Origin: Desulfobacterales bacterium
Lineage (GTDB): Bacteria > Desulfobacterota > Desulfobacteria > Desulfobacterales > JAFDDL01
Direction: 5' to 3'
NCBI GenBank assembly: GCA_963677545.2
Contig: CAXXKH010000003.1
Location: 672,563-704,562 of the forward strand
Length of the DNA: 32,000 nt
The position numbers and the translations under genes were made by a program. A model generated the notes under the pieces. It saw only the letters and a list, made by a program, of their open reading frames with translations. It searched no databases and was not told the origin of the DNA. Below are positions 1-26,523 of this stretch, in pieces; the stretch's first letter is position 1, and each line of letters opens with the position of its first letter.

Positions 1-1971
1 TTCCACATAGTCGAGGGCTGTCCGGACCGGGCTGCTTTTTTTAAAAAATTCCATCAGGTTGGTTTCAACGCGAAGGTGGCTTGTATAGATAACGGAAGCA
101 ACCACGATCGCCGCGCATACGACTATTACTAATCGATATTTTTCGAAAACGAATGAAAAGAGGTGGCGAAGTATCGTGGAAATCCTGTTGCCGCCGTCAT
201 ATTCCTGATAGACTTTTTTCGGGTCGAAACAGAGAATCAGGGGCGGCAGAAAAAAGAAAGAAAAGATGAACTCAAAAACCATGCCCGCGGATGCAATCCA
301 TCCGAATTCCTTAACCGGAGGGATATCGCTGATGCAAAGAGAAATAAACCCGATCGCCGTGGTAAGAGTGGTCAGGAAGCAGGGGAGTGCCACGCGATTC
401 ACTACATGGGAAAGTGCCTGTTTCCGCCGAGGGAACCGTTTCAGTATCTGCCGATCCATGTGGCTGAAGATATGAACCGTGTCGCAGAGCGCAAGCGCCA
501 TGACAAGTGGAATAATAATTGTGGTGACGTTGTTCAGGGCGATACCCATAAGCCCCATCAAGCCCCGGGTAGCGCCGACACAAATGGAGATATTGAGAAT
601 TGACAGAAATGTAATTCGAATATTTCTAAAAAAGAGCCATGTGAAAATGGTGAGAAGCAGATAGGTCGCGGGTACGAAAATGAGCACATCAGATGTGAGG
701 TATTGGCTGAGGCTGAGGTTGGTGGTGGTCCAGCCTGCCATATAAAATTTGTTCCCGGCGGCCTCGAAGGGGGCAAGAATCTCCTTCACATCTGCGAGGA
801 CCCGTTTCCTGAGGCCGTCATCCTGGGCATCGACATGGGGTTCGACCACAATGGCCGTTGTCCGGCCATCCTTCGAAATCAGATTTCCTTTATACAAGGG
901 GTTTTGCAGGGCTCTAGCTCTCAGTGCGGACTGCTCTGCTTCGTTTTCCGGCAGATAGTCTAAAAGCGGACGTACTTCAAAATAATCTTCTCCCCCGCTG
1001 ATTTCGTTGACGTTTGCTAGGCTGGTTACTTCTTCGACATCATCCAGCTCTTCAATAGACCAGGTGATCTGCTGGATTATCTCCAGTGTTTCAGGAGAAA
1101 ACAGGTTGTCGTTTTTAAAAGCGATAATGAAGAATTCATCATCGCCGAAAATGGTTTTGAATGTGTCGTAATATTCCAACTCGGGGTTGTTTTCAAGCGT
1201 GAAAAAGTCGAAGTCACTGGCTGTTTTAACAAAGGGGTTGTACGCGATAAAAAAGCATCCGAAAAGCAGTGCCGCTATGAAAAAGAGCTTGGGGAATTGG
1301 CAAACGATACCGAGATTCAACGGCGTTTTAGAAAGCTGTGCGGTCAGTTCCTCTATTTTCCGAAATATTCGATTATAGGTACTGTGTCGCTGGAGTATTT
1401 CCTTGTAGGTTGCCAGGGCTTCCGGTTTATTACCGCTTTGTTCCTGAATGATGGCGATTCGTTCAAGAAGTCTCGCCTCTTTTTCGGGATCGTTCTTAAC
1501 CAGGGAAAGAGCTTTCCGCAGCATATTGATGCCGGCATCTATATCTTCTTTTAATAGAAGAACTTCTGCGATTCCTTCAAAAGAGACGCTGGCAAATTCA
1601 GGAGAAATCTCGGCCGCTTTTTCAAACTCCTTTACGGCCTCATTATAAAAACCAAGGGATCTTAATTGGACGGCTCTTCTGATAAGGGCTTCCGCCGGCA
1701 GGTCACCAGGCACCCGTGTAACTTCAGATTCCGGTTTTTCCGCTGCTGTTGCTTTTTCGTCGATTATTTCGAGTCTTCTTGCAAGTGCTTTTGTAATAGC
1801 TTTGAGTTGCTTCAGTTTCCTGCTATCGAACTCTCCACTGTTTTTCAGGGTTTCACGGCATTGTGCAAGCATGGATTCGTATATGCCCGCTGCCTCTCTG
1901 AACAGGCCCTGCTGAACATATATTTCTGCTTCTTTCAAACCTTGCCGGGTATTGGGTTTTATTCTGCTCAT
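1..1971 (-). CDS. RND-superfamily MMPL-type exporter with a ~217-aa N-terminal TPR-like soluble extension; 3' end lies beyond the window
   Basis: Absent from the ORF track because this frame has no stop inside the window. Hand translation of the minus strand from ATG 1971..1969 showed no stop in any block checked: all of 421..1971, plus 1..60 in the same frame; 61..420 was not translated. N-terminus MSRIKPNTRQGLKEAEIYVQQGLFREAAGIYESMLAQ... (TPR-like helices). Then TM1 LNLGIVCQFPKLFFIAALLFGCFFIAY, loop start FDFFTLENNPELEYYDTFKTIFGDDEFFIIAFK, and TM bundle GIALNNVTTIIIPLVMALALCDTVHIFSH, typical of MMPL/RND proteins. Confidence 0.8.
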   Translation of the reverse strand, partial: MSRIKPNTRQGLKEAEIYVQQGLFREAAGIYESMLAQCRETLKNSGEFDSRKLKQLKAITKALARRLEIIDEKATAAEKPESEVTRVPGDLPAEALIRRAVQLRSLGFYNEAVKEFEKAAEISPEFASVSFEGIAEVLLLKEDIDAGINMLRKALSLVKNDPEKEARLLERIAIIQEQSGNKPEALATYKEILQRHSTYNRIFRKIEELTAQLSKTPLNLGIVCQFPKLFFIAALLFGCFFIAYNPFVKTASDFDFFTLENNPELEYYDTFKTIFGDDEFFIIAFKNDNLFSPETLEIIQQITWSIEELDDVEEVTSLANVNEISGGEDYFEVRPLLDYLPENEAEQSALRARALQNPLYKGNLISKDGRTTAIVVEPHVDAQDDGLRKRVLADVKEILAPFEAAGNKFYMAGWTTTNLSLSQYLTSDVLIFVPATYLLLTIFTWLFFRNIRITFLSILNISICVGATRGLMGLMGIALNNVTTIIIPLVMALALCDTVHIFSHMDRQILKRFPRRKQALSHVVNRVALPCFLTTLTTAIGFISLCISDIPPVKEFGWIASAGMVFEFIFSFFFLPPLILCFDPKKVYQEYDGGNRISTILRHLFSFVFEKYRLVIVVCAAIVVASVIYTSHLRVETNLMEFFKKSSPVRTALDYVE

Positions 1972-2398: not shown

Positions 2399-4363
2399 TT
2401 AAAAGTTTATTTCCAAAAGCCCATACACCTGATCATTGTCCGAATAAAAACCAATCGGTGTTTCTACCGATCCGTCAAAAAATTCTGCACCGAATTCAAG
2501 TCGAAGGGGCTGCCAATAGGCGATCTTGAACTTGGGATTGATCATAGTAGCATCTCCGGAAAAGTCATAATACCCACGACATTCAATTTCGTAATTACCG
2601 TTTGAAAAGGTTTTTCGAAACGTGCCGATCAGGGCGCTGGTTTGTTCCTCCGCCCAGACGATGAGCGGATCATAATCCCTGACCGAACTTTGGAAAAACT
2701 GAAGGTTGGCATACCATGCATTTGGGCTGTTGTAATCCATGCCGAGCATGTACTGCCACTGAGCTTTTTGCATACGTTCCAACCGGCTGGTTTGAAAGCT
2801 CTGGTTGTCAAAGTAGGCAATGTCGGCTCTGACCCCAAAATCTTTTACCGTTGTTTCAATCTCAAAACCGAAAATGTTTTGCCGGTTATGAACCAGTGAA
2901 ATGTTTTGGCCGGAAATGGAGGCAAACGATGCAAGATCAATCGGGGAAAACTCACCAGGCGGAAGCACAACACCCGGGGGCAGCCACATGCTGTCCGGTG
3001 TCGGTAAGTCCTCACGAGTGTAGAACCAACTGACGGCATAGTCGATATTTCTCAAAATTCCCGCTACCCGGATACCGTATTCGCTGTTGTCCAGGGAACA
3101 GCCGGGATCATCTTCAACTAAACCGAATGGACCAATTGTGCTGTCCGCGTGTCGAAACATGGCCCAGTCGGTGCCCGTGAAATCGAGTTCCGGGCCGAAA
3201 AAACCGGGGATATAAATACTCTGGAAGGTTATTTGGCCTTGGTATATTTCCAGGTTTGCCATGGGGATAGGGAGCTTCCGGTCTTCCCTGCGTCCGGCGA
3301 CACCATCCCGGTAGTCTTCAGGATTCAGATTGTCAAGGGGGCTGTAGCCATCTGTCTTGCCCCAGCGGACCACTTGATTGCCGAGCTTCAGGTTGAATCG
3401 CGGATGCGCGAAATTTATGTAGACATCGTGGAACCTCAGATTAAAGTCGTTATCCACATCCCCGCTGTTGGTATAACCATAATAATCGATATCCAGAGAG
3501 AATACCATTTGAAGATGGTTGTTCGGCTTATAGGTAGATTCCAGGATCAGTTCGGCGTGTCCATACCCATCGTCTTCGAATTCATTTTCAGTATTACTAT
3601 CCATGGATAGTAGGGTACGAAATCGTCCGGAAAGTTCGACTGGTGGCAGAGTGCTAATCGCATCCGGACTGCTGTCAGCACTGTCCCACAGGCCCTTCGC
3701 GCTTTCAGCCCCCGCCACATCCGAAGGCCCCTGATCCCAGAGATCACTGGCCCGGGTGTTATCGTCTTCAGAGGGGGGGGCTTCCCCCCAGAGATTGTCC
3801 GCATCGTCATCCGGGGATACGTCCGTATCCTCCCCCCAGATATCCTCGCTGCCTGCTGTTTCTTCTTCGTTGCTGCCGTGTGAAGTGGGCGTACTATCCG
3901 CTGCAGGTGAATGTTCGGTTGTCTGAAATGATTCTTGAGTCTCATTCTTGGGGTTGCTTATAAAAATGGTAACGACACCCCTGTTCTCTGAGGCATCGAA
4001 ATCAATACCGTTCAATATCTCGGTGTCAAGCACAATGCGCACTTTGCCGGGATGCTGTCCAACACGTACTGCTCTGACGATACCACTGCCGTCTTCCGGC
4101 CGTATGGTATTTTTTGAGAGAGTACACCCCTCCAGATCAATAACAATCCGATCTGGTGACGTCAATGTGAAAGGATTTATTTCCGGGATAATCCCGCTGA
4201 AATGGATTGTTACTGTGTCACCCGAATCATCGCTTTCAAGCTCGATATTTCTCACAACGGATCGTTGCATATCCCCGGTTTCGATATCTTCCCCGGAAGC
4301 TGACGGACAGATTGTAACCGCCATTGTCAACGCTGAAAGAACCCATATAGCCCAATTTTTCAT
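2399..4363 (-). CDS. Outer-membrane protein: signal peptide, AMIN-like domain, acidic Trp-repeat linker, and a DUF1302-like beta-barrel
   Basis: ORF 2399..4384; start moved to ATG 4363, giving signal peptide MKNWAIWVLSALTMAVTICPSASG. AMIN-like segment VRNIELESDDSGDTVTIHFSG...DRIVIDLEG...VRAVRVGQHPGKVRIVLD. C-terminal ~415 aa carry LGNQVVRWGKTDGYSPLDNLNP and end in the aromatic ...YGLLEINF, typical of OM barrels. Confidence 0.7.
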   Translation of the reverse strand: MKNWAIWVLSALTMAVTICPSASGEDIETGDMQRSVVRNIELESDDSGDTVTIHFSGIIPEINPFTLTSPDRIVIDLEGCTLSKNTIRPEDGSGIVRAVRVGQHPGKVRIVLDTEILNGIDFDASENRGVVTIFISNPKNETQESFQTTEHSPAADSTPTSHGSNEEETAGSEDIWGEDTDVSPDDDADNLWGEAPPSEDDNTRASDLWDQGPSDVAGAESAKGLWDSADSSPDAISTLPPVELSGRFRTLLSMDSNTENEFEDDGYGHAELILESTYKPNNHLQMVFSLDIDYYGYTNSGDVDNDFNLRFHDVYINFAHPRFNLKLGNQVVRWGKTDGYSPLDNLNPEDYRDGVAGRREDRKLPIPMANLEIYQGQITFQSIYIPGFFGPELDFTGTDWAMFRHADSTIGPFGLVEDDPGCSLDNSEYGIRVAGILRNIDYAVSWFYTREDLPTPDSMWLPPGVVLPPGEFSPIDLASFASISGQNISLVHNRQNIFGFEIETTVKDFGVRADIAYFDNQSFQTSRLERMQKAQWQYMLGMDYNSPNAWYANLQFFQSSVRDYDPLIVWAEEQTSALIGTFRKTFSNGNYEIECRGYYDFSGDATMINPKFKIAYWQPLRLEFGAEFFDGSVETPIGFYSDNDQVYGLLEINF

Positions 4364-4605
4364 GTTCGCTGTCCTATACCCCAACAGCGGGGTATTTAAT
4401 GAAAAGCCACTATTTCTCGTGCAGAGACGTAAAGATACAGAGCGATATAAAGCTGTGAAGCGAGGATGCCGGGAAGCTATGATGCAAAAACAAGCTTGAA
4501 ACTTTTGAGCCTCTTAAGAAAAGCGGTGTGGAATTGCATTGGGTTGCTATGAAGAAACAGAAACTTTCTGTACCTCAGTCCCCCTTGCATTTGAAAAACA
4601 TCCCG

Positions 4606-4755
4606 TTATCCTATTGCCTAAAGCCTATAATCCATCTCCTCCTTGCTTATGTTCTTTCCGACCTCAGATCTCCGACTTCCGACCTCTGGCACCTTGCCCC
4701 TTGATGTTTCTTCCAGGCTTCATAGCCTCCCAGCCTTCAAGCTCCCCGCTCCACG
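4606..4755. repeat. Pyrimidine-rich (plus strand) modular tract directly 3' of the stop codon of the 4756..5541 gene
   Basis: Contains CCTATTGCCTAAAGCCTATAATCC, then CCGACCTCAGATCTCCGACTTCCGACCTCTGGC, then CTCCCAGCCTTCAAGCTCCCC. The same three modules recur at 23826..24062, 26681..26844, 29350..29458 and 31650..31826. Confidence 0.7.
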
Positions 4756-5541
4756 CTAACTCCCATGCATCATATACGCCTTGGTGAAAATATTGTCAGG
4801 GATATCCCTGTTATAATGTAACTCCAGCGTCTTCATGTATGTATGGTGATCCTTTTTCAGGTCATGCATCTCTGATTCGGTAACAGACCAGATGCCATCC
4901 ACCTGCTTTATTTCTATGGCCGTAAACTCTTTCATCACTTTTCCCCTGCTGTCATAATACTCGGTTTTAACGGGAAGTAACGCTGTTTTAGAAATCCAGG
5001 AAATCAATTTGCCGTACTGAGTAGATTTGGCGTCCTTGGGAATGCTCTCAAGAACCCAGCATTCGTGGGTCCCCACGTTCTCCTCCCGCAGAATGTTATG
5101 CCGGTCCTGGTCGGGTTTGCGGCGCTCCATGTCCTCATAGGTATAATCGGTGTTTACGAACCGGCTGGATTTCTGTGATGAAACGATTCTGCGCACGCGG
5201 TTGAGCGCCGGAAGAAAGAGGAACTGATCGTTTTCGCGTTCTTCATTTTCCCAGGTCAAAAACGAGGTGCCGTCAATATCAGCCGGAGAAGTAAATTGGA
5301 TATAGCTTTTTTTTATTTCCCCGTATTCTTTGGTGGCGCTAATCAGGGTGCGAAACCGCTTTCTGCCCCTTTTGTCCAACAAGAGCATTCGGACCGTGGC
5401 ATAGGAGTCCTTTCCGTCTTCTCGGTTATATACCTTTTGTGCCAGTGTCGATCCATCGATGGGAAATGGCTGAGCCGATGCGTTTATGCAGATAGCAAAT
5501 ATTAAGAAGAATCCCATCAATTTTCTAACAGATAATTTCAT
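4756..5541 (-). CDS. LolA-like outer membrane lipoprotein-sorting family protein (periplasmic)
   Basis: Signal peptide MKLSVRKLMGFFLIFAICINASA. The body (YNREDGKDSYATVRMLLLDKRGRKRFRTL...QFLFLPALNRVRRI...DYTYEDM) matches my recollection of the LolA-like family that accompanies MMPL exporters and DUF1302-type barrels. Confidence 0.65.
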   Translation of the reverse strand: MKLSVRKLMGFFLIFAICINASAQPFPIDGSTLAQKVYNREDGKDSYATVRMLLLDKRGRKRFRTLISATKEYGEIKKSYIQFTSPADIDGTSFLTWENEERENDQFLFLPALNRVRRIVSSQKSSRFVNTDYTYEDMERRKPDQDRHNILREENVGTHECWVLESIPKDAKSTQYGKLISWISKTALLPVKTEYYDSRGKVMKEFTAIEIKQVDGIWSVTESEMHDLKKDHHTYMKTLELHYNRDIPDNIFTKAYMMHGS

Positions 5542-5614
5542 AGGGCCCCTTTTTGTTTAAAAATATTAAAAAAATATACTAAGAAAACGGTGAAAGTTCA
5601 AGTTTGTTTTAGTC

Positions 5615-5644
5615 GTTCTCTGCGTCACTGCGTCTCTGCGCGAG
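5615..5644. repeat. Solo copy of the GCGCAGAG-type repeat arm
   Basis: GTTCTCTGCGTCACTGCGTCTCTGCGCGAG, same orientation and near-identical to the right arm at 2342..2374. Confidence 0.6.
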
Positions 5645-5675
5645 AAATAAATGCTTTTATGCCGTAAAAGGTATG

Positions 5676-7682
5676 TCAGACAAATTCCTGAAGCGCCGGT
5701 AACGCGAGTTGGGCGGTTTCAATGGAAACATCGATCCCTGGTGGGGACATGATTTGATAAATTGTGTGGTAGCTATCAGGTATTGGTCCGACAATTTGCT
5801 CGATCCCCTGCAGGTGAATTCCCTGACGAGCCAGAAAAGAGATATAGGTGTGTCGTAATGCCTCGGGGGTTATTTGTTGCGGATCTCGAATCTGCGCCTG
5901 CTCGGCCGCCTCTAAGATACATTCCTCAGTTGTTTTGAGGGGAAAGGGGGCGCCCTTTTCGTTTCTCAGAATGTATTCGTCACCGTTCGTAGTCACTGAA
6001 AGGTTTTTTAAAAGAATCGAACGATAAAGTGGTGTTAATGGAATCGTTCGAGTGGAAGCCCCAGACGCTTTCAGCTTTCCTGTATCGAAATCGATATTTT
6101 TCCATTTTAACCGGATAATTTCATCGATGCGCAATCCGTTAAACAATCCCGCGATTATAGACTGTGTTGCGTCACTTGAAGCCACGTACAGTTTTTTAAT
6201 TTCCACATCCGACAACTCACGTGACAATATCTGTTCTGCTGGTGGAAGAAGGTTCTGACTTGCAGGCGTGCCTTGTAATTCGCTATGGGTTTGTGATGGC
6301 AGGCTTTGAAACACTTGATTGTAAGTGACGGGGAAAGCACCCAGGTCTTCTTTTCCGGCAGGGGCTCTTGTCAGAAAATCGAAGATTAGAACAGCGGCAA
6401 TTGCCAGCAACAGTGACACAACGACACTGATGGCAGCGTCACGCACATAATTTGGACGCGAAGGAGACTCCGGGAGGAAAGCCCTTTCGAGAACTTTGAT
6501 CTGAAGCAAGTCCGCGTCGCTTTTAATTTCCATTGCAACCATTTCTTTCTGATATTCTCTGCTCAACTTTTCGAGTTCCAGCAGGTTTTCTTTCAGCGAT
6601 TCGTATTCGGAAAAACGACCGCTGAATTCGGCGGCTTTTTTTTCATATGAAGCTATCTGAGCACGCAAATCATTTTCTGCGTGGCGCGCGCTTATGATTG
6701 CCTGTTCAGCCTCTTCAAGGGCAACTGTTTTAAGTTCCGTATGTTTGGATTGGATTTCTTCTATAAGACGGTGATATCTGTCTATGGTTGTCCGCGTGTT
6801 TTTGTCGATTTCTAAAAACTGAGGGGTGTACCGCGCTTCGTAATCCCTGACCAATTCCTCCATTTCGTCTGCTTTTTCCTCCAGACGCAGGAGTTCGGTG
6901 GTTTTTTTATAATTGCCTGCCCATTTTCCCTGTTCGATCGCTTCTTTGACTGAACGGAGATTCGCTTCCGCCAGTGTTCTATTTTCCGTTGCTTTATTCA
7001 GCGAATTATTCAACCCCTTCAGGGTAGAGAGAACTTTATTGCCATCTCGCTCCAGAGTGACAATGTCATATTTTTGGCGAAGCTGTTCCAGTTCCTCTCG
7101 TTTCTTTTCAATTTTATTGTTCAAGGTCTCGATTTGTTGATGAAGAGATACCGTGGTTGAATTCGAATAGGCTTGTTGTGTTTTTGAGTTCATGCCTACA
7201 TAGCGATCGATCCACGAATTGACGATGACCGGTAAGATCGCTTTATTCGGGCCGGCTGCTGTCAGGCGAATGACTGCACTATCTGAACGGGTTGTAACAT
7301 GAAGCATCGGACGGAGGGCGGAAACGGTGAACGGTTCCAAATACCCGGTATAGTCTGTTGAGGATAAACCGGTCAGCACATCCGACAGCAGGCTTCTGCT
7401 TAACAGCACTTGTTCCTGAAGCGCAATGTCATATGTGCTGGCATCCTGCCCTTCGCTGTTCGGATTTTTAGGTTCGATGAGCAAATCGGCGCTTGACTCG
7501 TAAATAGGCGGCCTGGCAAAAGTAAAAGCAAGTGACAGGGCGGCGACGACAATAAATACCCCTGCAAATATAAGCAGTCTTTTCCAAGACCTGTGTATTC
7601 TGGATCGAGGGGGTAGTTTACGGTATGTGCCGTTGAGAGGAGAAGGTTCGTAAATATGAGTTTGAGATGATTGCTGGGCCAT
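5676..7682 (-). CDS. Polysaccharide co-polymerase (Wzz/EpsF-like chain-length determinant) fused to a C-terminal tyrosine-recombinase-like domain
   Basis: TM1 LLIFAGVFIVVAALSLAF. Wzz motif FARPPIYESSADLLIEP. Long coiled coil. LPESPSRPN followed by TM2 AAISVVVSLLLAIAAVLIFDFL. The C-terminal ~185 aa (5676..6230) carry GLRIDEIIRLKWKNIDF, TRTIPL, and ITPEALRHTYISFLARQGIHLQGIEQIVGP...HTIYQ, resembling integrase boxes I and II. Confidence 0.7.
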   Translation of the reverse strand: MAQQSSQTHIYEPSPLNGTYRKLPPRSRIHRSWKRLLIFAGVFIVVAALSLAFTFARPPIYESSADLLIEPKNPNSEGQDASTYDIALQEQVLLSRSLLSDVLTGLSSTDYTGYLEPFTVSALRPMLHVTTRSDSAVIRLTAAGPNKAILPVIVNSWIDRYVGMNSKTQQAYSNSTTVSLHQQIETLNNKIEKKREELEQLRQKYDIVTLERDGNKVLSTLKGLNNSLNKATENRTLAEANLRSVKEAIEQGKWAGNYKKTTELLRLEEKADEMEELVRDYEARYTPQFLEIDKNTRTTIDRYHRLIEEIQSKHTELKTVALEEAEQAIISARHAENDLRAQIASYEKKAAEFSGRFSEYESLKENLLELEKLSREYQKEMVAMEIKSDADLLQIKVLERAFLPESPSRPNYVRDAAISVVVSLLLAIAAVLIFDFLTRAPAGKEDLGAFPVTYNQVFQSLPSQTHSELQGTPASQNLLPPAEQILSRELSDVEIKKLYVASSDATQSIIAGLFNGLRIDEIIRLKWKNIDFDTGKLKASGASTRTIPLTPLYRSILLKNLSVTTNGDEYILRNEKGAPFPLKTTEECILEAAEQAQIRDPQQITPEALRHTYISFLARQGIHLQGIEQIVGPIPDSYHTIYQIMSPPGIDVSIETAQLALPALQEFV

Positions 7683-8102: not shown

Positions 8103-8714
8103 ATGCTGAAATTTGATTTGGTAAGGCCCGAAGAAGCTCGATTCATAGAGGTTACGCAGCAATGTGAAAAGTCCTATTGGCGCTGTGACCTCCTGGATGA
8201 AAAATCCAGCTTTAATGAAAATCCGGACTATTATTGTATTGTCCGACGAAGCAACAACATACTCGTAACCCTGGGTGTTTTTTTAAAAACTGCCACAAAA
8301 TCTTTACCAATCGATGGGGTCATGTGGTACCAGAACAGCGGCCATGAACATACTGAGATAGAGCTTGGGCGCTTATCTTTTCACCAAAAGCCAAGCACCA
8401 AAAAGGAAGTCCTTGAAATTGTTGCTATCACCAGATTTTTGTTAGAGAATTTTTATTACCATGCGGAAGAAAAATATGGATCCTATATGGTTTATTTCGA
8501 AACTTACCATACTATCATAAAGCTGCTGTCCGCTGCAATTGGTAAAGACTTTATGATACCGAGAAAATGCCTGCTTCGATGGGATCAAATTCCTGAAGAG
8601 AGACGCGTTTTTTACAGAAAATTTTCCGAAGGTACTGCCGGTTTGTATCAAGTGGATCTGGATGCTTTTCGAAAGGCGATGGGAATAGTCGATAAAATAT
8701 CTGTCTATGCATAA
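8103..8714 (+). CDS. Hypothetical protein; weak resemblance to LuxI / N-acyl amino acid synthase-type GNAT fold
   Basis: 203-aa ORF convergent with 8732..9925. Segment TEIELGRLSFHQKP...ITRFLLENFYYHAEEKYGSYMVYFETYHTIIKLL resembles the core acyltransferase strand-helix motif. No stronger evidence. Confidence 0.4.
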   Translation: MLKFDLVRPEEARFIEVTQQCEKSYWRCDLLDEKSSFNENPDYYCIVRRSNNILVTLGVFLKTATKSLPIDGVMWYQNSGHEHTEIELGRLSFHQKPSTKKEVLEIVAITRFLLENFYYHAEEKYGSYMVYFETYHTIIKLLSAAIGKDFMIPRKCLLRWDQIPEERRVFYRKFSEGTAGLYQVDLDAFRKAMGIVDKISVYA

Positions 8715-8731
8715 CTGGAAATTATGAACGG

Positions 8732-9925
8732 CTATGATGAATATTGAGTCAGCAATTTTGGATTTAGCACCCTGACATTCTCGTCCTCTAAGGCGACAAT
8801 TTCGTTTTTCCGCCATTCCGTAATTATTTCCCGCAGGTTTTCCGGCCAAAGACCGCATTGTCTTGCCAGCCACGTCACGTGTATGGGTTTTGTCCCCTCA
8901 TCCGAGGCGTCGAGAAGTACATTGGCCACGGCTGAGGGCGATGGTGCAGTAATATTTTTATATCCCTGAATCTGACGTCTCAGTCGAGTGCCGAGCAGTC
9001 TGCAGATTTGCAGCGCCTTATCTCTGCTGTGCTCCAGCTGCTTCATAAACATCTCCTTGCTCCAGACCATTACATCCACTTCGTTGGAGTAGGGGACGAT
9101 TGTGGTTGTCCGTGCACCGCCATCGAGCAGGGATAGTTCACCGAAGATGTTGCCTTTGGAAATCAGAAAGTCCTTTTCCCCAATACGGTTGAACTGATTC
9201 CGTTCGGGAATAATGTCGTTGCCGTTTTTATCGGTCGGCAAGACCCTGATGGAACCCCTGAGGATAAAAAACGCGTCATCTCCCGCTTCCCCCTTCTGGG
9301 CAATAATTTCTCCCTCTTGATATATTTTCCGGACATTAGAGTCCTGAAGAATGATTTCGGAGGAAAAATCAAAAATTTCCCGGGAGCGCGGAGGAATTTT
9401 ATCCCAGCTTAGAAAAGCCGGTGTCATGGGAACTTGCAGTCCCGGTGATTCAAAATCGTTTCCGAGCCGTTTTGCGTTGAATGCGCGCTGGAGCAAGCGC
9501 ATGAGCGGAGGGTGCAGGGTTGCGACAACATGCCTGGCCCCCATTTTGCGCATGCTATGGACTGCCATTTTGAAGAGCCCGATAAGCAGCCCTGGATAAC
9601 TCCTGAATTCTTTTAATACGCAGAGCCACCCGAAACAGGCACACCTGCCTTCCAGATCTTTGATAAAAGGTCTGAAATCAAAATGTTCGTCTGCCGGGAA
9701 ACCGGCTGGGCTGTCCATGACCACACGGATTGTTCCGATTGGTTCTGCATCCTTGAAGGCAATGATATTCAGCGTTTCGTCAAAGCTGTCGAACATATCG
9801 AGAATGTAGGGGGTCTGGTGGGGAAATCGCCGCTCCTGCTCGACGAACACTCTGTGACGCAGTTTAAAAACGGTTTCCTTGTCCTCCGAGGATTCAGCAA
9901 CTTTGAACACGATCGGCATGAGCAA
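8732..9925 (-). CDS. Fusion protein: GNAT-type N-acyltransferase (PEP-CTERM-associated N-acyl amino acid synthase-like) + cyclic-nucleotide-binding domain + CRP-like wHTH
   Basis: SD AGGAGGG precedes the ATG. N-terminus FKVAESSEDKETVFKLRHRVFVEQERRF...IGTIRVV...CFGWLCVLKEFRSYPGLLIGLFK. Middle IYQEGEIIAQKGEAGDDAFFILRGSIRV...IFGELSLLDGGARTTTIV (cNMP phosphate-binding cassette). C-terminus VTWLARQCGLWPENLREIITEWRKNEIV (HTH-like). Confidence 0.7.
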   Translation of the reverse strand: MLMPIVFKVAESSEDKETVFKLRHRVFVEQERRFPHQTPYILDMFDSFDETLNIIAFKDAEPIGTIRVVMDSPAGFPADEHFDFRPFIKDLEGRCACFGWLCVLKEFRSYPGLLIGLFKMAVHSMRKMGARHVVATLHPPLMRLLQRAFNAKRLGNDFESPGLQVPMTPAFLSWDKIPPRSREIFDFSSEIILQDSNVRKIYQEGEIIAQKGEAGDDAFFILRGSIRVLPTDKNGNDIIPERNQFNRIGEKDFLISKGNIFGELSLLDGGARTTTIVPYSNEVDVMVWSKEMFMKQLEHSRDKALQICRLLGTRLRRQIQGYKNITAPSPSAVANVLLDASDEGTKPIHVTWLARQCGLWPENLREIITEWRKNEIVALEDENVRVLNPKLLTQYSS

Positions 9926-10009
9926 CCCTCCTGGAATTTTTGATTTGTACTTTTGGATTAATATAAGTATCAGATGTTTTCAATAATTTTTTTCTATGTT
10001 TTCTTATCT

Positions 10010-10218
10010 CCCGTTTCGTTCAAGATCGTGAGAGACCGCCGGGAACTACCTGAAAAGCAGAAAAATAATCTCGCGCAGAGCCGCAGAGCCGCCGAGAACT
10101 GCAAAAGAAGCTATTGCATTTCGCTGATCGCGAAATACAATAAAGGCATTCCCACTGGAAAGGAGCGCCTGCCGCAGGCATCGAGGTTTTTCTTTGCCGA
10201 GGCGTCCCTGTCTTGTAA
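10010..10218 (+). repeat. Modular hairpin repeat, copy with L-type arm variants, H1 hairpin and truncated H4
   Basis: TTCGTTCAAGATCGTGAGAGACCGCCGGGAAC, then TCGCGCAGAGCCGCAGAGCCGCCGAGAAC, then ATTGCATTTCGCTGATCGCGAAATACAAT, then GCATTCCC..GGAAAGG, then GCCGCAGGCATCGAGGTTTTTCTTTGCCGAG. Confidence 0.7.
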
Positions 10219-11157: not shown

Positions 11158-11202
11158 GGGCTTAGAAAAACATTATTTTTCAAAAAAGACTGACGTTTTT
11201 TA

Positions 11203-11460
11203 ATGGTAACAAAGCGAAAAATACTTCAGAAATTGCTTTCAGGGTCAAAAAATATCCGATTTTCTGATATGATAACCCTTGTTGAAGCTTTTGGTTTTCA
11301 GCTTTCTCGTACCAATGGAAGTCATAATGTTTTCGTTCATCCTGACATCCCGGAACTTATCAATCTTCAAGAGGTGAAAGGGAAAGTCAAACCATATCAG
11401 GTTCGTCAATTCCTGAAACTAATAGAGCGAAACAACTTGAGCTTGGAGGAGTATAAATGA
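11203..11460 (+). CDS. hicA: HicA-family toxin
   Basis: FGFQLSRTNGSHNVFVHPD...LQEVKGKVKPYQVRQFLKLIE matches the HicA GSH core. ATGA overlap with the hicB-like gene. Confidence 0.75.
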   Translation: MVTKRKILQKLLSGSKNIRFSDMITLVEAFGFQLSRTNGSHNVFVHPDIPELINLQEVKGKVKPYQVRQFLKLIERNNLSLEEYK

Positions 11461-11681
11461 GAGATTACCACATAAATATTTTCTATTCCGAAGAGGATGG
11501 TGGATACATTGCCGACATTCCGGATTTGAATGCTTGCTCTGCCTACGGTAATACCCCCGAAGAGGCGCTTTGCGAAGTTCAAAAAGCGAAAACGATTTGG
11601 CTGCAAACCGCTCGTGATAGTAAAAGACCGATCCCCCTTCCGAAATACAGACCTGTTATCTATCAAGCATCATGTGCTTAG
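11457..11681 (+). CDS. hicB: HicB-family antitoxin (short form)
   Basis: YHINIFYSEEDGGYIADIPDLNACSAYGNTPEEALCEVQKAKTIWL is the typical HicB N-terminal fold. Coupled to hicA. Confidence 0.75.
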   Translation: MRDYHINIFYSEEDGGYIADIPDLNACSAYGNTPEEALCEVQKAKTIWLQTARDSKRPIPLPKYRPVIYQASCA

Positions 11682-11758
11682 TGATATGACGATTTTTCGA
11701 TCGAGATCTCAAAGGGCTTTTTATGTCTGTCGTGTGAACTACCTTTTTTTATAAGAAT

Positions 11759-11817
11759 TGTTTACCGGCCACTCCGCCTCGACATCGGGACTACGCTAAA
11801 GGGTGCCAAGGGCCGCT
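11759..11817 (+). repeat. L-arm fragment of the modular repeat
   Basis: TGTTTACCGGCCACTCCGCCTCGACATCGGGACTACGCTAAAGGGTGCCAAGGGCCGC, compared with 12518..12575 TTTTTTACCGCCCACTACGCCCTGTCGGACTTCGTTCAAGGCCGCCAAGGACCGCC. Confidence 0.55.
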
Positions 11818-11984
11818 TAGATTGACAAAGGCTGGTTGCATAGGAAATATTTGCCTGATAGAAAGATAAAAGATAAATTGCATTCGAAACTACCGCGGAT
11901 TTGGGAATAGTAACTTTGAATTAATTGAGTATGGACATTCAGATTATTATTCTGTTCCATAACTATTGAAAGGTAAGTGAGAGC

Positions 11985-12305
11985 ATGATGTCAACTCAGG
12001 ACAAGAAAATCCTTGAACTTTTTACGGCACGAGTTCGAGACCTGTACAAGGACGCACGGGTTTGGGCCTATGGATCACGCGTACGGGGGGATGCAACCTG
12101 GGAGTCCGATTTTGATATTTTTATACTCTTGCCGAAAAAGGATGAATTTGCAGAGACAAAGATCAGGAATATCGGTTGGGAGATTGGCTTTGAACATGAA
12201 AGAGTTCTTACCACCGTGATAATGGAGCAAAATCAATTTGAGCATGGTCCCATGTCTGAGAGCACTCTTGTTAAAAATATCCTGCATGAAGGCCTGGAAG
12301 CGTGA
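11985..12305 (+). CDS. MNT-type nucleotidyltransferase antitoxin
   Basis: AYGSRVRGDATWESDFDIFILL (GS...D.D polymerase-beta-type NTase motif). 4-nt overlap with the HEPN gene. Confidence 0.75.
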   Translation: MMSTQDKKILELFTARVRDLYKDARVWAYGSRVRGDATWESDFDIFILLPKKDEFAETKIRNIGWEIGFEHERVLTTVIMEQNQFEHGPMSESTLVKNILHEGLEA

Positions 12306-12484
12306 CCTCTGAAAACATAAAAGCGTTGGTCCGGTATCGGCTTGAACAATCCGACGAGTCTATTAAAGCTGCGGTTTTGTTACTCCAAGAGGGCATCCCG
12401 AGACGCTCGGTCAACAACTCCTACTATGCTATGTTTTATGCCGTCATGGCGCTTCTTTGCGATCTTAAGCGAAGCGAGCGGTGA
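12302..12484 (+). pseudogene. HEPN-domain toxin gene truncated after ~51 codons by a repeat R arm
   Basis: The native part ...LLLQEGIPRRSVNNSYYAMFYAVMALL is a typical HEPN first half. The last codons CDLKRSER* are encoded by the repeat GGCGCTTCTTTGCGATCTTAAGCGAAGCGAGCGGTGA. The C-terminal half, where HEPN proteins carry the Rx4-6H motif, is absent. Confidence 0.65.
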
Positions 12485-12487
12485 GAT
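12448..12487 (+). repeat. R arm of the modular repeat (forms the 3' end of the truncated HEPN ORF)
   Basis: GGCGCTTCTTTGCGATCTTAAGCGAAGCGAGCGGTGAGA, compared with 15724..15762 GGCGCTTCTTTGCGATCTTGAGTGAAACGGGCGGTGAAA. Confidence 0.7.
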
Positions 12488-12517
12488 AGCAGTTATTTTT
12501 TGGCTTTTATGATATTG

Positions 12518-12665
12518 TTTTTTACCGCCCACTACGCCCTGTCGGACTTCGTTCAAGGCCGCCAAGGACCGCCAAGGCCGCCAAAGGCGGCTAAAAGCTG
12601 CAAGGTGCTATTGTATTTCGCTGGTCACGAAATACAATGAGAGCATTCCCTTCGGGAAGAGGGAG
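12518..12665 (+). repeat. Modular repeat, L arm through H2, right half missing
   Basis: TTTTTTACCGCCCAC...CTTCGTTCAAGGCCGCCAAGGACCGCCAAGGCCGCCAAAGGCGGCTAAAAGCTGCAAGG..ATTGTATTTCGCTGGTCACGAAATACAAT..GCATTCCCTTCGGGAAGAGGG. Confidence 0.7.
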
Positions 12666-15804: not shown

Positions 15805-17841
15805 ATGGAAAAAAAAGATCTGATAAAGAAACTAAAGGAACATGGTATCCATACCAAGGCGCACTTTTATACGGAAGCCTTTTCCCGGAACATCGGTCTG
15901 TTAACCACTGCTGACCAGGCTAAGCTCTCCGAGGCCACCGTCGCCATCCCCGGTATGGGCGGGGTAGGCGGGGCACACCTGATGGCCATGATTCGGATGG
16001 GGGTGGGAAAGTTTCACATTTCAGATTTCGATACCTTTGAAGTGGCCAATTTTAACCGGCAATACGGCGCCACCGTCCCGAGTCTGGGTCAGAATAAACT
16101 GGATACGATGGTTGCACAGGCATTGTCCGTAAATCCCTATGCAGAAATCAAGACTTTCCCCCAGGGCATTTCCGCCGAAAATCTCGATGAATTCCTGGAT
16201 GGAGTGGATGTCGTTATCGACAGTCTCGACTATTTCGAATTCGATATTCGAAGAATGCTGTTCAATCGGGCAAGTGAAAGAGGCGTGTATGTGGTTACCG
16301 CCGGCCCGATCGGCTTCAGTTCCGCCATGCTGGTTTTCTCCCCGCACGAAGGCATGGGGTTTGACGAGTATTTCAATATCGTCCGCGATATGACGCCACA
16401 GGATCATTACCTCTCCTATGCTATGGGGCTGGCCCCGAGGTCCACCCAGATCAAGTACATGGATCTGTCCCGAGTGGATTTGACCGCCAAGGCCGGCCCA
16501 TCATCAATTGCCGCTGTCCAGCTTTGTGCCGGTATGGTAGCTTCTGAGGCCATGCGGATTATTTTAGGAAAGGGCAGAATAAAACCGGCGCCTCATTATT
16601 TCCAATTCGATTTCTATCGGCAGATTTTTCGAAAAGGAAAACTTAGAGGCGGAAACCGGCATCCCATTCAGAAGCTGAAAAAAAGTATTGTAAACAAGCT
16701 TCTCGCGAGAAACGCTAAGATTATTAAACCGGAGGTGCCGGAAATACCCGCGTTAGGTAATATAACAGAGGACCTGCCTGAGCCTGTTCTTGAATATATC
16801 TTAAAGGCTGGAATTCAGGCGCCTTCCGGCGACAATGTTCAGCCCTGGAAGTTCAAAGTCAGGAACAACAGCATCGATCTTTACCTTGACAAAGCCGTTG
16901 ACAACTCGTTTTTCAATGTGCAACAGATCGCGTCCATTATTTCGTGTGGTGCGGTTATCGAAAACCTCAAAATCGCGGCAACCCTGTTCGGCCTTGATTC
17001 GAATATTCATTTACTCCCGGAAGGCGGGGGAAGTGACCATATGGCCTCGGTTACCTTCACCGACGGCGAAATTGAAAGCGATCCCCTCTCCCCATTTATT
17101 TGGGAGCGTTGCACCAACCGGAAATTCTTCAATAAAGAAGTCATTCCCGAGTCAAATCTTGAAACACTTAGTGAATCTGTTTCGATGTTTCCCGGCGTCA
17201 GCCTCCACCTGATCACCGGTCGTGAGCGGCTGAAATCGGTTGCCGACATGGTGTATCTGGCAGACCGTATTCGAACCGAGCACCGCCCCATGCATGAGCA
17301 TTTAAATAAAATGATTCGCTTCACGAAAAAAGAGGCGATTGACGCGCGTGATGGTTTCCCCCTGAAAAACCTGGAGGCCGGTATTGCCGGAGAGATTTTC
17401 TTGAAAGCCACCCGTTCTTGGGCGGCCATGACCGTGGCGAATTATTTGGGGGTTGGCCGGCTTGTGGCCATGCATGCCAAAATGGGAATACTCAGTTCAT
17501 CCGGAGTGGGACTTGTTACGGTAAAAGGCACCGGAACAAAGGACCTTTTGATAGGCGGCCAGGCCCTTGAACGGACCTGGCTTAACCTTGCCAAGCTTGG
17601 TATTTCTTTTCAACCCATGGCGGCTGTGACTCTATTCTGGATGCGTTGGCTTCTGTCCGGGGAGAATGATTTTCTGCCGAAGCATCGCCCGCTTTTGAAC
17701 CGCGTGTGGGATGCTTACAAAAGGCTCTTTCCTGAAGTTGATTTTGAAGCGGATGGGCATGTCCTGTTATTTCGGTTCGGGGTTGCGAAACCGATTCGGC
17801 AGAGAACTATACGAAAATATCATCACAGTTTTTACCGGTGA
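15805..17841 (+). CDS. ThiF/E1-like adenylyltransferase domain fused to tandem nitroreductase-like domains (Rv1355c/MoeY-type architecture)
   Basis: N-terminus FSRNIGLLTTADQAKLSEATVAIPGMGGVGGAHLMAMIRMGVGKFHISDFDTFEVANFNRQ (E1 Rossmann, Gly-rich ATP loop). From about residue 330, ILKAGIQAPSGDNVQPWKFKV (nitroreductase signature). 678 aa. Confidence 0.7.
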   Translation: MEKKDLIKKLKEHGIHTKAHFYTEAFSRNIGLLTTADQAKLSEATVAIPGMGGVGGAHLMAMIRMGVGKFHISDFDTFEVANFNRQYGATVPSLGQNKLDTMVAQALSVNPYAEIKTFPQGISAENLDEFLDGVDVVIDSLDYFEFDIRRMLFNRASERGVYVVTAGPIGFSSAMLVFSPHEGMGFDEYFNIVRDMTPQDHYLSYAMGLAPRSTQIKYMDLSRVDLTAKAGPSSIAAVQLCAGMVASEAMRIILGKGRIKPAPHYFQFDFYRQIFRKGKLRGGNRHPIQKLKKSIVNKLLARNAKIIKPEVPEIPALGNITEDLPEPVLEYILKAGIQAPSGDNVQPWKFKVRNNSIDLYLDKAVDNSFFNVQQIASIISCGAVIENLKIAATLFGLDSNIHLLPEGGGSDHMASVTFTDGEIESDPLSPFIWERCTNRKFFNKEVIPESNLETLSESVSMFPGVSLHLITGRERLKSVADMVYLADRIRTEHRPMHEHLNKMIRFTKKEAIDARDGFPLKNLEAGIAGEIFLKATRSWAAMTVANYLGVGRLVAMHAKMGILSSSGVGLVTVKGTGTKDLLIGGQALERTWLNLAKLGISFQPMAAVTLFWMRWLLSGENDFLPKHRPLLNRVWDAYKRLFPEVDFEADGHVLLFRFGVAKPIRQRTIRKYHHSFYR

Positions 17842-17902
17842 ACTGCTGCTCCTGAAAAAAATCAGTCCAAAGTCTGGATAAACGCATGGTGTGGAGTTTA
17901 AC

Positions 17903-18910
17903 ATGAATATTAACAAGATCTTAGAGCGTGTTTCCGAATATATGTGGCCTGTGATTCGTTTTGTTATAAAGAAAAAAAGACGGTGTAAGAATTGCATTCT
18001 TTCAGAAGCATATCTCCCGTTGAAGAACGGCTTATGTGAAAAATGTTCCAATGAAATTAATTGTTTTGAAGAGAAGCATTTTGAGGCATCGGAGGATATC
18101 AAGCACAAATTTCATGAAAAGATAACCTCTTATCAGGAAACCGATAAACGTTATCATTGTCTACTGCTTCTAAGCGGGGGGAAAGACAGCGCCTATATCC
18201 TGTATCGCATGAAATTGGAATATCCCGGCTTAAGGATACTCTGCGTTTTTGTAGACAATGGTTTTTCGAGCCCTGTAGCGATATCGAACGCTACTTATGT
18301 CGCAGATAAATTCAAAACCGATTTTATGATTGTCAGCTCTTATGTTGATGAATTTTCTAAAGTGTTTCGTCAGGCCTTTTTAGATCTGAAAGGAAGAGGA
18401 AGTTATGGTGTTGTGGACAAGGCTGACGGAGATTTTATATTTGAAGTTGGGCAAAAAGTGGCCCGAGATATGCGGATTCCAATGATACTCGGCGGTCTCT
18501 CATGGGTCCAGCTGCAAAAAATATTTGGTATCGATGGTTTCGAACTTGAACAGGAGATTCCGGTAATTCATCCGCTTGCTGTCTGGCGGGTCAATGAGCA
18601 GGGTATCCGTGATGAGGTTCAGGCGCGGAATCTGTTGCCCCGGGGAAATGACAACCCCGTGGTAACCAATAACAAGCTTATCCTGACCATGTGCGCATTG
18701 GACGTAAAGAACAACGGTTATTGCAGTTTCGAGCCCGAATTTGCCCAGTTGGTACGTGAGGGGAAAGCAGACAGGAAAACCTGGTTGTATAATTTTGAAT
18801 TGCTGGAATTTGCCACGATAAATGGTTTTCTGGATAAGGAAATCTCAGATTCCCTGGAGAAACTTCATCTGACAATGGATGATGTCATAAAATGTGAGAA
18901 AGTCAAATAA
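17903..18910 (+). CDS. PP-loop ATP pyrophosphatase with N-terminal CxxC-x13-CxxC zinc ribbon (N-acetyl sugar amidotransferase-like or TtuA-like)
   Basis: ATG 17903 is preferred (GGAG 6 nt upstream). CKNCILSEAYLPLKNGLCEKC, then HCLLLLSGGKDSAYILYRM (SGGxDS PP-loop). Confidence 0.65.
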   Translation: MNINKILERVSEYMWPVIRFVIKKKRRCKNCILSEAYLPLKNGLCEKCSNEINCFEEKHFEASEDIKHKFHEKITSYQETDKRYHCLLLLSGGKDSAYILYRMKLEYPGLRILCVFVDNGFSSPVAISNATYVADKFKTDFMIVSSYVDEFSKVFRQAFLDLKGRGSYGVVDKADGDFIFEVGQKVARDMRIPMILGGLSWVQLQKIFGIDGFELEQEIPVIHPLAVWRVNEQGIRDEVQARNLLPRGNDNPVVTNNKLILTMCALDVKNNGYCSFEPEFAQLVREGKADRKTWLYNFELLEFATINGFLDKEISDSLEKLHLTMDDVIKCEKVK

Positions 18911-18923
18911 GAGAGGAGATTGT

Positions 18924-26351: not shown

Positions 26352-26523
26352 TGTGTTTCCTCCAAGTGATGATGAAGCAGCAGGGAGCTTGGGGCGTGGA
26401 ACTTGGAGTTTAAAAAATATTTCCACTACACCATTTTTGTCTATGATTTTAGTATTTCCCATATCTGACTCCGGTCTACGTTATTGGTTTTTGACTCACT
26501 TGTAAAAGCATGAATCTCACGGG

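Follow-up and report, generated by a model that had tools for sequence, protein, structure and literature searches.

The window analyzed here, a stretch of 32,000 nucleotides from a Desulfobacterales bacterium (assembly GCA_963677545.2, contig CAXXKH010000003.1, positions 672,563 to 704,562 of the forward strand), carries on its reverse strand a gene whose product combines a FeeM-type GNAT domain, a cyclic-nucleotide-binding (cNMP) domain, and a winged helix-turn-helix (wHTH). On balance, we lean towards this product being a cyclic-nucleotide-responsive N-acyl amino acid synthase (NAS) of the OxzA/TyzA type. The label is drawn from the fold of the N-terminal domain, from gene linkage, and from a natural fusion protein, P0080. 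The assignment is made because a gene for a ThiF-nitroreductase is a conserved neighbor of the fusion gene, and because a close relative of its GNAT domain is itself fused to a ThiF-nitroreductase. The gene and the parts of its product, as delineated with the help of an AlphaFold2 (AF2) model, are the following:

8732..9919, reverse strand: gene of the three-domain protein, probably 395 residues from the ATG at 9919, with its stop codon at 8732..8734
9927..9932, reverse strand: ribosome-binding site AGGAGG, 7 nt upstream of ATG 9919, by direct reading of the sequence
9401..9919, reverse strand: FeeM-type GNAT domain, putative N-acyl amino acid synthase (residues 3-175)
9341..9400, reverse strand: inter-domain linker (residues 176-195) with invariant P178, R182, and E183
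9032..9340, reverse strand: cyclic-nucleotide-binding β-barrel (residues 196-298)
8966..9031, reverse strand: CRP-type C-helix, presumed dimerization helix (residues 299-320; helix 301-319 in the AF2 model), aligned with the C-helix of 4ev0
8735..8941, reverse strand: C-terminal winged helix-turn-helix (residues 329-397), three helices followed by two β-strands in the AF2 model

The open reading frame (ORF) 8732..9925 on the reverse strand, of 397 residues, is present as described in the earlier note and contains every peptide quoted there. The ORF finder starts it at a TTG at 9925, two codons upstream of ATG 9919. Since all homologues begin with MPI in a 24-sequence alignment, and AGGAGG is found 7 nt ahead of the ATG, the latter is the probable true start; GGAGG-like motifs also precede the starts of the homologous genes in most loci. 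The 395-residue product is 100% identical to the database protein P0001, and the identical protein is found on independent multi-megabase assemblies. A search covering 5.8 billion proteins returned 65 homologue clusters (378-434 residues, 40-100% identity), all annotated FeeM + cNMP_binding and named by their sources solely as “cyclic nucleotide-binding domain-containing protein” or “CRP-like cAMP-binding protein”. A genome scan with the single protein as query returned nothing, whereas an alignment-based scan succeeded: the homologous loci nearly all belong to Desulfobacterota metagenome-assembled genomes (Desulfobacterales, Desulfosarcinaceae, Desulfatitalea, Desulfocapsaceae, Desulfohalobiaceae), with a few in Myxococcales and one in Riflebacteria. 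Hereafter, conserved residues refer to the 24-sequence alignment, column entropies to 65 sequences, and neighbor counts to 32 loci. The single ORF with three parts is a real and recurrent fusion, the layout for which a search in other genomes had been proposed being shared by all 65 clusters. These align unbroken over 9340..9400, where a junction of two genes by sequencing error had been suspected.

Pfam reports FeeM (PF21926) for residues 19-169 (E 2.1e-21, 76.8 bits against a cut-off of 27) and Acetyltransf_5 at E 1e-5, and FeeM is matched by all 24 aligned relatives. Modeled alone, the N-terminal domain reaches a predicted local distance difference test score (pLDDT) of 90.2, and its top Foldseek match is FeeM (PDB entry 2G0B; E 5e-10, TM-score 0.77/0.79, root mean square deviation ~3 Å). 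Next come BjaI and MesI, which are CoA-dependent acyl-homoserine lactone (AHL) synthases, then TofI, LasI, RpaI, and EsaI, all before generic GNATs. No direct sequence match of the domain to FeeM 2G0B was found, the likeness being detected by the fold search alone, and the sequence-level alignments to BjaI (E 8.5e-4) and RpaI (E 6.7e-3) cover only the LuxI-type N-terminal block, represented in the window protein by R23, F27, D43, D46, and R67. As modeled, the N-terminal domain is a FeeM/AHL-synthase variant of the GNAT fold, from which an N-acylation activity may be inferred. Of the domains, it shows the strongest conservation, with a mean column entropy of 1.20 bits. These results bear out the placement of the first ~175 residues in the LuxI-like or N-acyl amino acid synthase branch of the GNATs, and the structure prediction that had been recommended yields a confident model with an acyltransferase fold, the absence of which had been named as fatal to the proposal. 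Two narrower family memberships did not hold. The exosortase-associated acyltransferase model TIGR03694 gives 34.6 bits against a cut-off of 111.95, with its best stretch at residues 8-73, and the LuxI-type AHL synthase family Autoind_synth (PF00765) gives no match for the window protein at E<=1 and weak ones in 7 of the 24 relatives (best E 0.0054).

Downstream of the linker, Pfam cNMP_binding (PF00027) matches residues 200-298 (E 3.3e-11, 43.4 bits against 27.5). The phosphate-binding cassette (PBC), FGELSLLDGGARTTT, is canonical, as had been claimed: G262 and E263 never vary, at least 90% of the sequences keep R272 and T273, and a variable insert is located in the barrel at residues ~232-252. 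PDB profile matches of this domain include the CNB domains of PKA, PKG, and CRP. The family profile of residues 196-392 spans entire CRP regulators (Thermus thermophilus CRP 4ev0 at E 3.8e-14, GlxR, and Mycobacterium tuberculosis CRP), the alignment covering barrel, C-helix, and HTH. The whole-protein AF2 model has a pLDDT of 86.6 and a predicted TM-score (pTM) of 0.85, is of low pLDDT in the linker region at residues 186-189 only, and returns CRP-family proteins as its only Foldseek matches. Mean column entropies are 1.36 bits for the cNMP domain and 1.30 bits for the C-helix. Judged by profile and model together, an entire CRP-type module appears to make up the C-terminal two-thirds of the protein.

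When the ORFs of all related loci are clustered, the family-wide partner of the fusion gene emerges, a gene encoding a ThiF-nitroreductase of ~680 residues that lies within 10 kb in 21 of the 32 loci, across subclades, and is usually directly adjacent. In the window, this partner is:

15805..17841, forward strand: ThiF-nitroreductase di-domain protein (678 residues), putative OxzB/TrzS-type oxazolone synthetase

Its product comprises a ThiF domain (Pfam, E 1.3e-44) and a Nitroreductase domain, and matches the Rv1355c (TrzS) family at E 5e-82. By sequence it is clearly homologous to OxzB/TrzS, orthology being a further step beyond scores that stay below curated cut-offs. The arrangement of the two genes varies among relatives. 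In the 386-aa subgroup, the ThiF-nitroreductase gene directly follows the fusion gene in the same orientation, which is the oxzAB layout. It is divergent from the fusion gene in four other loci (L001, L043, L020, and L026), the gap being 250-270 bp in L001 and L043. No other NAS-like gene is present within 10 kb in 13 or more loci of the 386-aa subgroup, and the fused GNAT is therefore the sole OxzA candidate there. The linkage is mirrored by the Rosetta-stone fusion P0080 (870 residues), in which FeeM, ThiF, and Nitroreductase domains form a single chain. It occurs on two independent contigs (loci L035 and L036), is the nearest match of the N-domain profile outside the family (E 2.6e-46), and is potentially a complete one-polypeptide N-acyl oxazolone synthase. 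The extra 300 N-terminal residues of PRK14852 were also considered as a FeeM domain, an idea that was rejected, P0080 matching this model from position 296 onward only.

In the characterized system, OxzA is an N-acyltransferase that uses acyl-CoA to produce N-acyl-Tyr/Phe, and its partner OxzB, an “oxazolone synthetase”, is a ThiF-nitroreductase; the two yield tyrazolones and phenazolones. These oxazolones absorb at 330-400 nm, and oxzA is usually located immediately upstream of oxzB, the listed examples being alpha-, beta-, and gammaproteobacterial only (bioRxiv 10.1101/2020.06.11.147165). TyzACB and TrzAS (Rv1356c/Rv1355c) of M. tuberculosis perform the same chemistry, and the desaturation by the characterized nitroreductase-type enzymes requires O2 (PMC10404671, PMC12856293), Rv1355c being TrzS (PMC12856293). 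The closest structures of TyzA are FeeM 2G0B and BjaI 5W8C, and the M. tuberculosis tyz cluster is flanked by mmpL9 (PMC10404671). Clusters that combine a NAS, ThiF, a nitroreductase, and a methyltransferase have been tied to stieleriacines and thalassotalic acids (PMC12479983). The terms “cyclic nucleotide” and “cAMP” are both absent from bioRxiv 10.1101/2020.06.11.147165, PMC12856293, and PMC12479983, and a literature search returned no relevant paper joining FeeM with cyclic nucleotide, or GNAT with cNMP and N-acyl amino acid.

Further genes accompany this pair. In the 386-aa subgroup, a conserved gene for a 560-586-residue protein without Pfam match directly precedes the fusion gene in the same orientation (L010, 7805..9547, and equivalents in 13 loci), and these two genes and the ThiF-nitroreductase gene form an apparent unit. 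In the window, the ThiF-nitroreductase gene is directly followed by a homologue of WbuX-like N-acetyl-sugar amidotransferases (17891..18910), of which other examples are found in L017 and L028, and then by an HpnA-like NAD-dependent epimerase (18894..19895), both being possible tailoring enzymes. In the Riflebacteria locus L022, the fusion gene is flanked by radical-SAM genes (8447..9991 and 11169..12623), the downstream enzyme having a B12-binding domain and the upstream one matching Radical_SAM only, and in L038 a ~315-residue FeeM-cNMP gene is followed by a B12-binding radical-SAM gene (3976..5751). These two loci offer a different setting for tailoring, their examined flanks being devoid of a ThiF-nitroreductase.

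The fusion belongs to a larger set of proteins. An exhaustive search with the N-domain profile, which replaced a word-indexed homologue search with the N-domain alone that had returned one fragment, yielded 1922 representatives at E<=1e-3, and architectures were taken from the best 150. Stand-alone GNATs of <=230 residues account for 42 of these 150 and GNAT + cNMP only, of ~300-320 residues, for ~50, the latter being the commonest architecture at ~50 of the 87 cNMP-bearing representatives; 30 are of ~400 residues and have one more domain at the C-terminus. The additions seen in longer forms are an O-methyltransferase (P0106, P0147, P0198, P0207), a cytochrome P450 (P0149), HisKA + HATPase_c (P0165), or a second cNMP domain (P0127, P0200). 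An LCM-type carboxyl methyltransferase gene adjoins the GNAT-cNMP gene in all three loci inspected (L034, L037, and L039), two of these genes being of the ~300-residue form and the third encoding the methyltransferase fusion P0106. Among the 87 cNMP-bearing representatives, 51 have a strictly canonical cassette, the rest a variant (R-I/M/V-A) or degenerate one. Locus L039 is the complete 6.4-Mb genome CP021425.1, and a tandem pair of FeeM-cNMP genes is found in a TARA marine contig. Because the HTH-less form is the commonest and the C-terminal slot is interchangeable, the architectures point to GNAT-cNMP as the core unit, with the wHTH as one of several add-ons, a picture that in turn favors regulation of an enzyme by its nucleotide domain over a transcription factor carrying an enzyme. 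The arrangement, which had been thought unusual, is hence not rare: GNAT-cNMP is a broader undescribed module, mostly without HTH.

We propose the following sequence of events. The FeeM-fold GNAT would acylate an amino acid, with acyl-CoA or acyl-ACP as the donor of the fatty acyl moiety. By analogy with the characterized OxzAB, TyzACB, and TrzAS systems, the product would then be passed to the ThiF-nitroreductase encoded at 15805..17841, whose ATP-dependent cyclization and desaturation would give an N-acyl oxazolone or a dehydro-N-acyl amino acid. The LolA-like, DUF1302, and MMPL proteins encoded nearby may export the lipid, as their co-location suggests. The CRP-type module would dimerize through its C-helix and bind a cyclic nucleotide in the canonical cassette, its primary role being allosteric gating of the acyltransferase, as in the cAMP-regulated mycobacterial Pat, and the C-terminal winged helix would be an add-on specific to this subfamily. 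Gating of this kind is favored by the canonical cassette, by the prevalence of GNAT-cNMP proteins devoid of an HTH, and by the linker residues that never vary.

The winged helix is central to the main rival explanation, which holds that the protein is mainly a CRP/FNR transcription factor of the ThiF-nitroreductase, NAS, and exporter genes, its GNAT serving as a sensor for acyl-CoA or the pathway product. We consider this possible though not probable. The whole-length alignment of residues 196-392 with bona fide CRP regulators includes HTH and wing, and the three helices and β-hairpin wing of the AF2 model have the topology of the CRP C-terminal domain, in agreement with the HTH-like nature attributed by the earlier note to the last ~65 residues. 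The divergent orientation of the fusion and ThiF-nitroreductase genes over 250-270 bp in L001 and L043 is the classic layout of a regulator and its target, the canonical FeeM synthase encoded alongside in seven loci could provide the enzyme activity, and the FeeM-cNMP-histidine kinase variant has the N-terminal domains in the usual sensor position. However, although HTH_Crp_2, recommended as a check, does match residues 333-394, it does so at 15.8 bits (E 0.014), below the cut-off of 27, and is detectable in 6 of 24 members, always below cut-off. Helix 2 of the wHTH (WLARQCG, family form WLxRQCG) is invariant with an entropy of 0.95 bits, in contrast to the recognition helix WPENLREIITEW (residues 359-371), whose 2.39 bits are the highest among the structured segments, the whole wHTH and its wing being at 1.83 and 2.23 bits. 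The positions matching the DNA-contacting R180 and R185 of CRP are occupied by P/G and E, and the net charge of the wHTH is -3 in the window protein and -0.9 on average in the family, compared with a charge for the E. coli CRP C-terminal domain that we take to be +2. When 29 upstream regions were searched for 5/6-mer palindromes with gaps of 0-12 and for CRP, FNR, and NtcA consensus sequences, no palindrome common to these regions exceeded the shuffled controls (4 loci for the best one, up to 3 in the controls), and CRP- and FNR-type consensus matches were sparse in them, although an operator could sit elsewhere. A strong palindrome at 10112..10144 was rejected as a gene-specific operator, since it belongs to a repeat, present in five copies, by which the toxin-antitoxin cassettes are flanked. 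Because the recognition helix is unconserved, the wHTH acidic, and no operator shared, DNA binding is doubtful: the sequences leave it possible but do not support it, and any specificity would not be conserved. The rival is weakened by this unconserved recognition helix, and also faces the majority of GNAT-cNMP proteins that lack an HTH and a GNAT that is the most strongly constrained domain and is fused to a ThiF-nitroreductase in P0080. Of the nucleotide-sensing transcription factor put forward in the earlier note, the cNMP domain and the CRP-type module are borne out, with nucleotide sensing as their predicted function, and the role in transcription stays a conjecture.

Other readings change the ligand or the substrate. 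The CRP-like barrel might bind the acylated product or acyl-CoA and make the protein a one-chain synthase-receptor with feedback or autoinduction, which we regard as unlikely. CRP/FNR-superfamily barrels such as those of CprK, NtcA, and CooA do bind non-nucleotide ligands, the PBC Glu or Arg is missing in some representatives (P0071, GVLP...PRVH; P0073, GFLP...KHVR), and R-[I/M/V]-A replaces R-[S/T]-A in many relatives, but the window protein and its 24 aligned relatives keep G-E-L...R-T, the ribose-phosphate-binding signature that is usually lost in the non-nucleotide members. The pairing of cNMP and GNAT is also the hallmark of mycobacterial Pat, and the NCBIfam Pat family matches the cNMP part weakly (E 0.19 for the window protein, 1.8e-12 for P0086), so that a Pat-type cNMP-regulated acetyltransferase of proteins or small molecules, unrelated to lipid signals, could be envisaged. 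This is very improbable and was rejected: the Pat model (NF058543) reaches 10.5 bits against a cut-off of 460, and only on the cNMP domain, the order of the domains is reversed (here GNAT then cNMP), the GNAT of PAT (4nxy) ranks 35th with a TM-score of 0.56 while FeeM and the AHL synthases rank best, and the ThiF-nitroreductase linkage and the P0080 fusion point elsewhere. Rejected likewise, with hardly any probability left to it, is an artefact joining two genes through an assembly or sequencing error, a reading at odds with the identical protein on independent assemblies, with a homologue set that keeps one continuous frame and invariant linker residues down to 40% identity, and with the coherence of the AF2 model.

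Several observations weigh against the cyclic-nucleotide-responsive synthase that we prefer. The partner remains below the curated cut-offs of PRK14851 (1014 bits against 1170) and of the Rv1355c family (276 against 476), and in the window it is 5.9 kb away from the fusion gene. In 7 of the 32 loci, including the 60-65% identical L001 and L043, a stand-alone canonical FeeM (E 1e-43 to 1e-47) adjoins the fusion gene, and in such loci the fused GNAT may have a redundant or a sensory role. The PBC is degenerate in some divergent representatives of the family (P0071 and P0073 above), and the completeness of the CRP-like wHTH argues for some DNA-linked or protein-linked output. Moreover, the hosts are mostly anaerobic Desulfobacterota, yet the characterized nitroreductase-type desaturases need O2.

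If this synthase is nevertheless what the gene encodes, a cyclic nucleotide may control the making of these lipids, a bacterial class that is poorly understood, in relatives of sulfate reducers. N-acyl oxazolones (tyrazolones and tryptazolones) were discovered only in 2020-2025, and their pathway would be extended to anaerobic Desulfobacterota, where the O2-dependent step is puzzling. A synthase with its own cyclic-nucleotide sensor would offer a direct, testable handle on the timing of lipid production, and a GNAT-cNMP module with interchangeable C-terminal domains suggests a general, unreported second-messenger control of acyl-amino-acid lipid synthesis. More speculatively, and with rather low confidence, FeeM-cNMP could be a widespread and undescribed module, a lipid-signal synthase gated by a second messenger. 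Under this reading, a cyclic nucleotide would turn on the formation of N-acyl amino acid or oxazolone lipids in this subfamily, and the winged helix would serve for docking or output, directed at the ThiF-nitroreductase or at DNA with lineage-specific targets, in place of classical operator binding. Given the O2 requirement of the known nitroreductase-type desaturases, strict anaerobes would form the final product upon oxygen exposure only, and cyclic nucleotide and O2 would be integrated into one exported lipid.

The other features annotated in the window are:

1..1971, reverse strand: 5' portion of an MMPL/RND-type transporter gene truncated by the window edge, mapped from the identical locus L032
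2399..4384, reverse strand: AMIN + DUF1302 outer-membrane protein (Pfam), alongside the LolA-like gene in relatives
4756..5541, reverse strand: LolA-like/DUF1329 periplasmic lipid-carrier-like protein (Pfam LolA_like, E 2.4e-66), found in 8 of the 32 loci
8103..8714, forward strand: orf203, convergent orphan gene (203 residues), 17 bp from the fusion-gene stop codon
10001..15763, no strand assigned: island of toxin-antitoxin (TA)-type cassettes separated by ~200-nt palindromic repeats, by gene calls
20039..20971: PepA-like PEP-CTERM protein
21461..22177: CsgD/LuxR-type regulator
24063..26462 and 26845..29142: PrsT TPR lipoproteins, two paralogues
29459..30868: TIGR03790-family protein

The LolA-like, DUF1302, and MMPL genes are kept alongside each other in the subclade of the window, and the transporter gene call of L032 (17949..20861) matches Pfam MMPL, Patched, and Sterol-sensing. 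The convergent orientation of orf203, noted previously, is confirmed. Its proposed identity as a second divergent acyltransferase fits its position: a canonical FeeM gene, convergent and immediately downstream, occupies the same place in L043, L001, L005, and L028, and an orphan of the orf203 type does so in the window and in L042. The sequence tests, on the other hand, are negative or very weak. No Pfam or NCBIfam match was found, a PDB profile search and a BLASTP comparison with the positional orthologue returned nothing, and hhalign gives a probability of 0.1% to the fused GNAT and of 6-8% to the canonical FeeM neighbors (P ~0.005, 63 columns in register); orf203 has five close homologues only.

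The TA island splits the otherwise adjacent divergent pair of the fusion and ThiF-nitroreductase genes. Its cassettes comprise TumE-like, HicA/HicB, nucleotidyltransferase, PhdYeFM/PIN, further PIN, and PDDEXK_3 genes. They are set apart by a composite palindromic repeat of ~200 nt (repeat families D1-D10), which is present in five or six complete or partial copies. The predicted fold of one copy is a long hairpin with branches (-44 kcal/mol, z = -5.1). Rfam returned no match, and the 93%-identical relative L042 has a different set of TA cassettes in the same gap. The island resembles an integron-like (attC/CALIN-type) cassette array or one bounded by miniature inverted-repeat transposable elements (MITEs). 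On the other side of the fusion gene, the reverse-strand gene 5676..7682 (668 residues) encodes a Wzz/chain-length-determinant N-terminal part (pepcterm_ChnLen-like, residues 30-447) followed by a tyrosine-recombinase catalytic domain (Phage_integrase, E 3e-12; XerA/integron-integrase-like, E 1.6e-16) that sits where a tyrosine kinase is normal. By eye, the recombinase Arg-I, Arg-II, and Tyr motifs are present, whereas His-II is Glu and His/Trp-III is Pro. This gene is absent from L042 and is therefore a recent insertion. The segment 20039..30868 is a neighborhood of the PEP-CTERM/exosortase type. PEP-CTERM proteins, to which the earlier note had pointed, are encoded within 10 kb of the fusion gene in 8 of the 32 loci, all in the window's subclade; the 386-aa subgroup has no PEP-CTERM neighbors, the family-wide partner being instead the ThiF-nitroreductase.

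Among known systems, OxzA/OxzB of Pseudoalteromonas rubra and TyzA/B/C and TrzA/TrzS of M. tuberculosis are alike in pairing a synthase of the FeeM/AHL-synthase fold with a ThiF-nitroreductase, of which TrzS/Rv1355c is homologous to the partner found here. The order of synthase then ThiF-nitroreductase on one strand is shared by oxzAB and the 386-aa subgroup, an MMPL transporter is encoded near the M. tuberculosis tyz locus as in the window, and the structural neighbors reported for TyzA (FeeM 2G0B and BjaI) match those of the N-terminal domain. In the three papers searched for “cyclic nucleotide” and “cAMP”, the known oxazolone synthases are not described with a sensor module, whereas this protein carries a C-terminal cNMP domain and a CRP-type wHTH, and their hosts are aerobic proteobacteria or actinobacteria rather than anaerobic Desulfobacterota. 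FeeM, one of the long-chain N-acyl amino acid synthases derived from environmental DNA, provides the best structural match (TM-score 0.77-0.79) and a Pfam assignment above cut-off, but 2G0B is only 12% identical to the N-terminal domain and FeeM is a stand-alone enzyme. The TIGR03694 acyltransferases belong to the same GNAT branch, and the window holds two PrsT proteins, one PEP-CTERM protein, and one chain-length determinant; they differ by the low score of the window protein (34.6 bits against 111.95) and by the 386-aa subgroup being without PEP-CTERM neighbors. CRP/FNR factors (E. coli CRP, GlxR, M. tuberculosis CRP, and 4ev0) share the cNMP barrel, the C-helix and wHTH topology of the model, and the canonical cassette, and differ from this protein, which has an extra 185-residue N-terminal enzyme domain and an acidic wHTH whose unconserved recognition helix lacks the DNA-contacting arginines, with no operator found in the upstream regions searched. 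Lastly, Pat (Rv0998/MSMEG_5458) differs in its reversed domain order, in its GNAT branch (that of the protein lysine acetyltransferases), in being devoid of a wHTH, and in an NCBIfam model whose cut-off this protein does not reach, but it likewise fuses a cyclic-nucleotide domain to a GNAT and is the best mechanistic analogy for the proposed gating.

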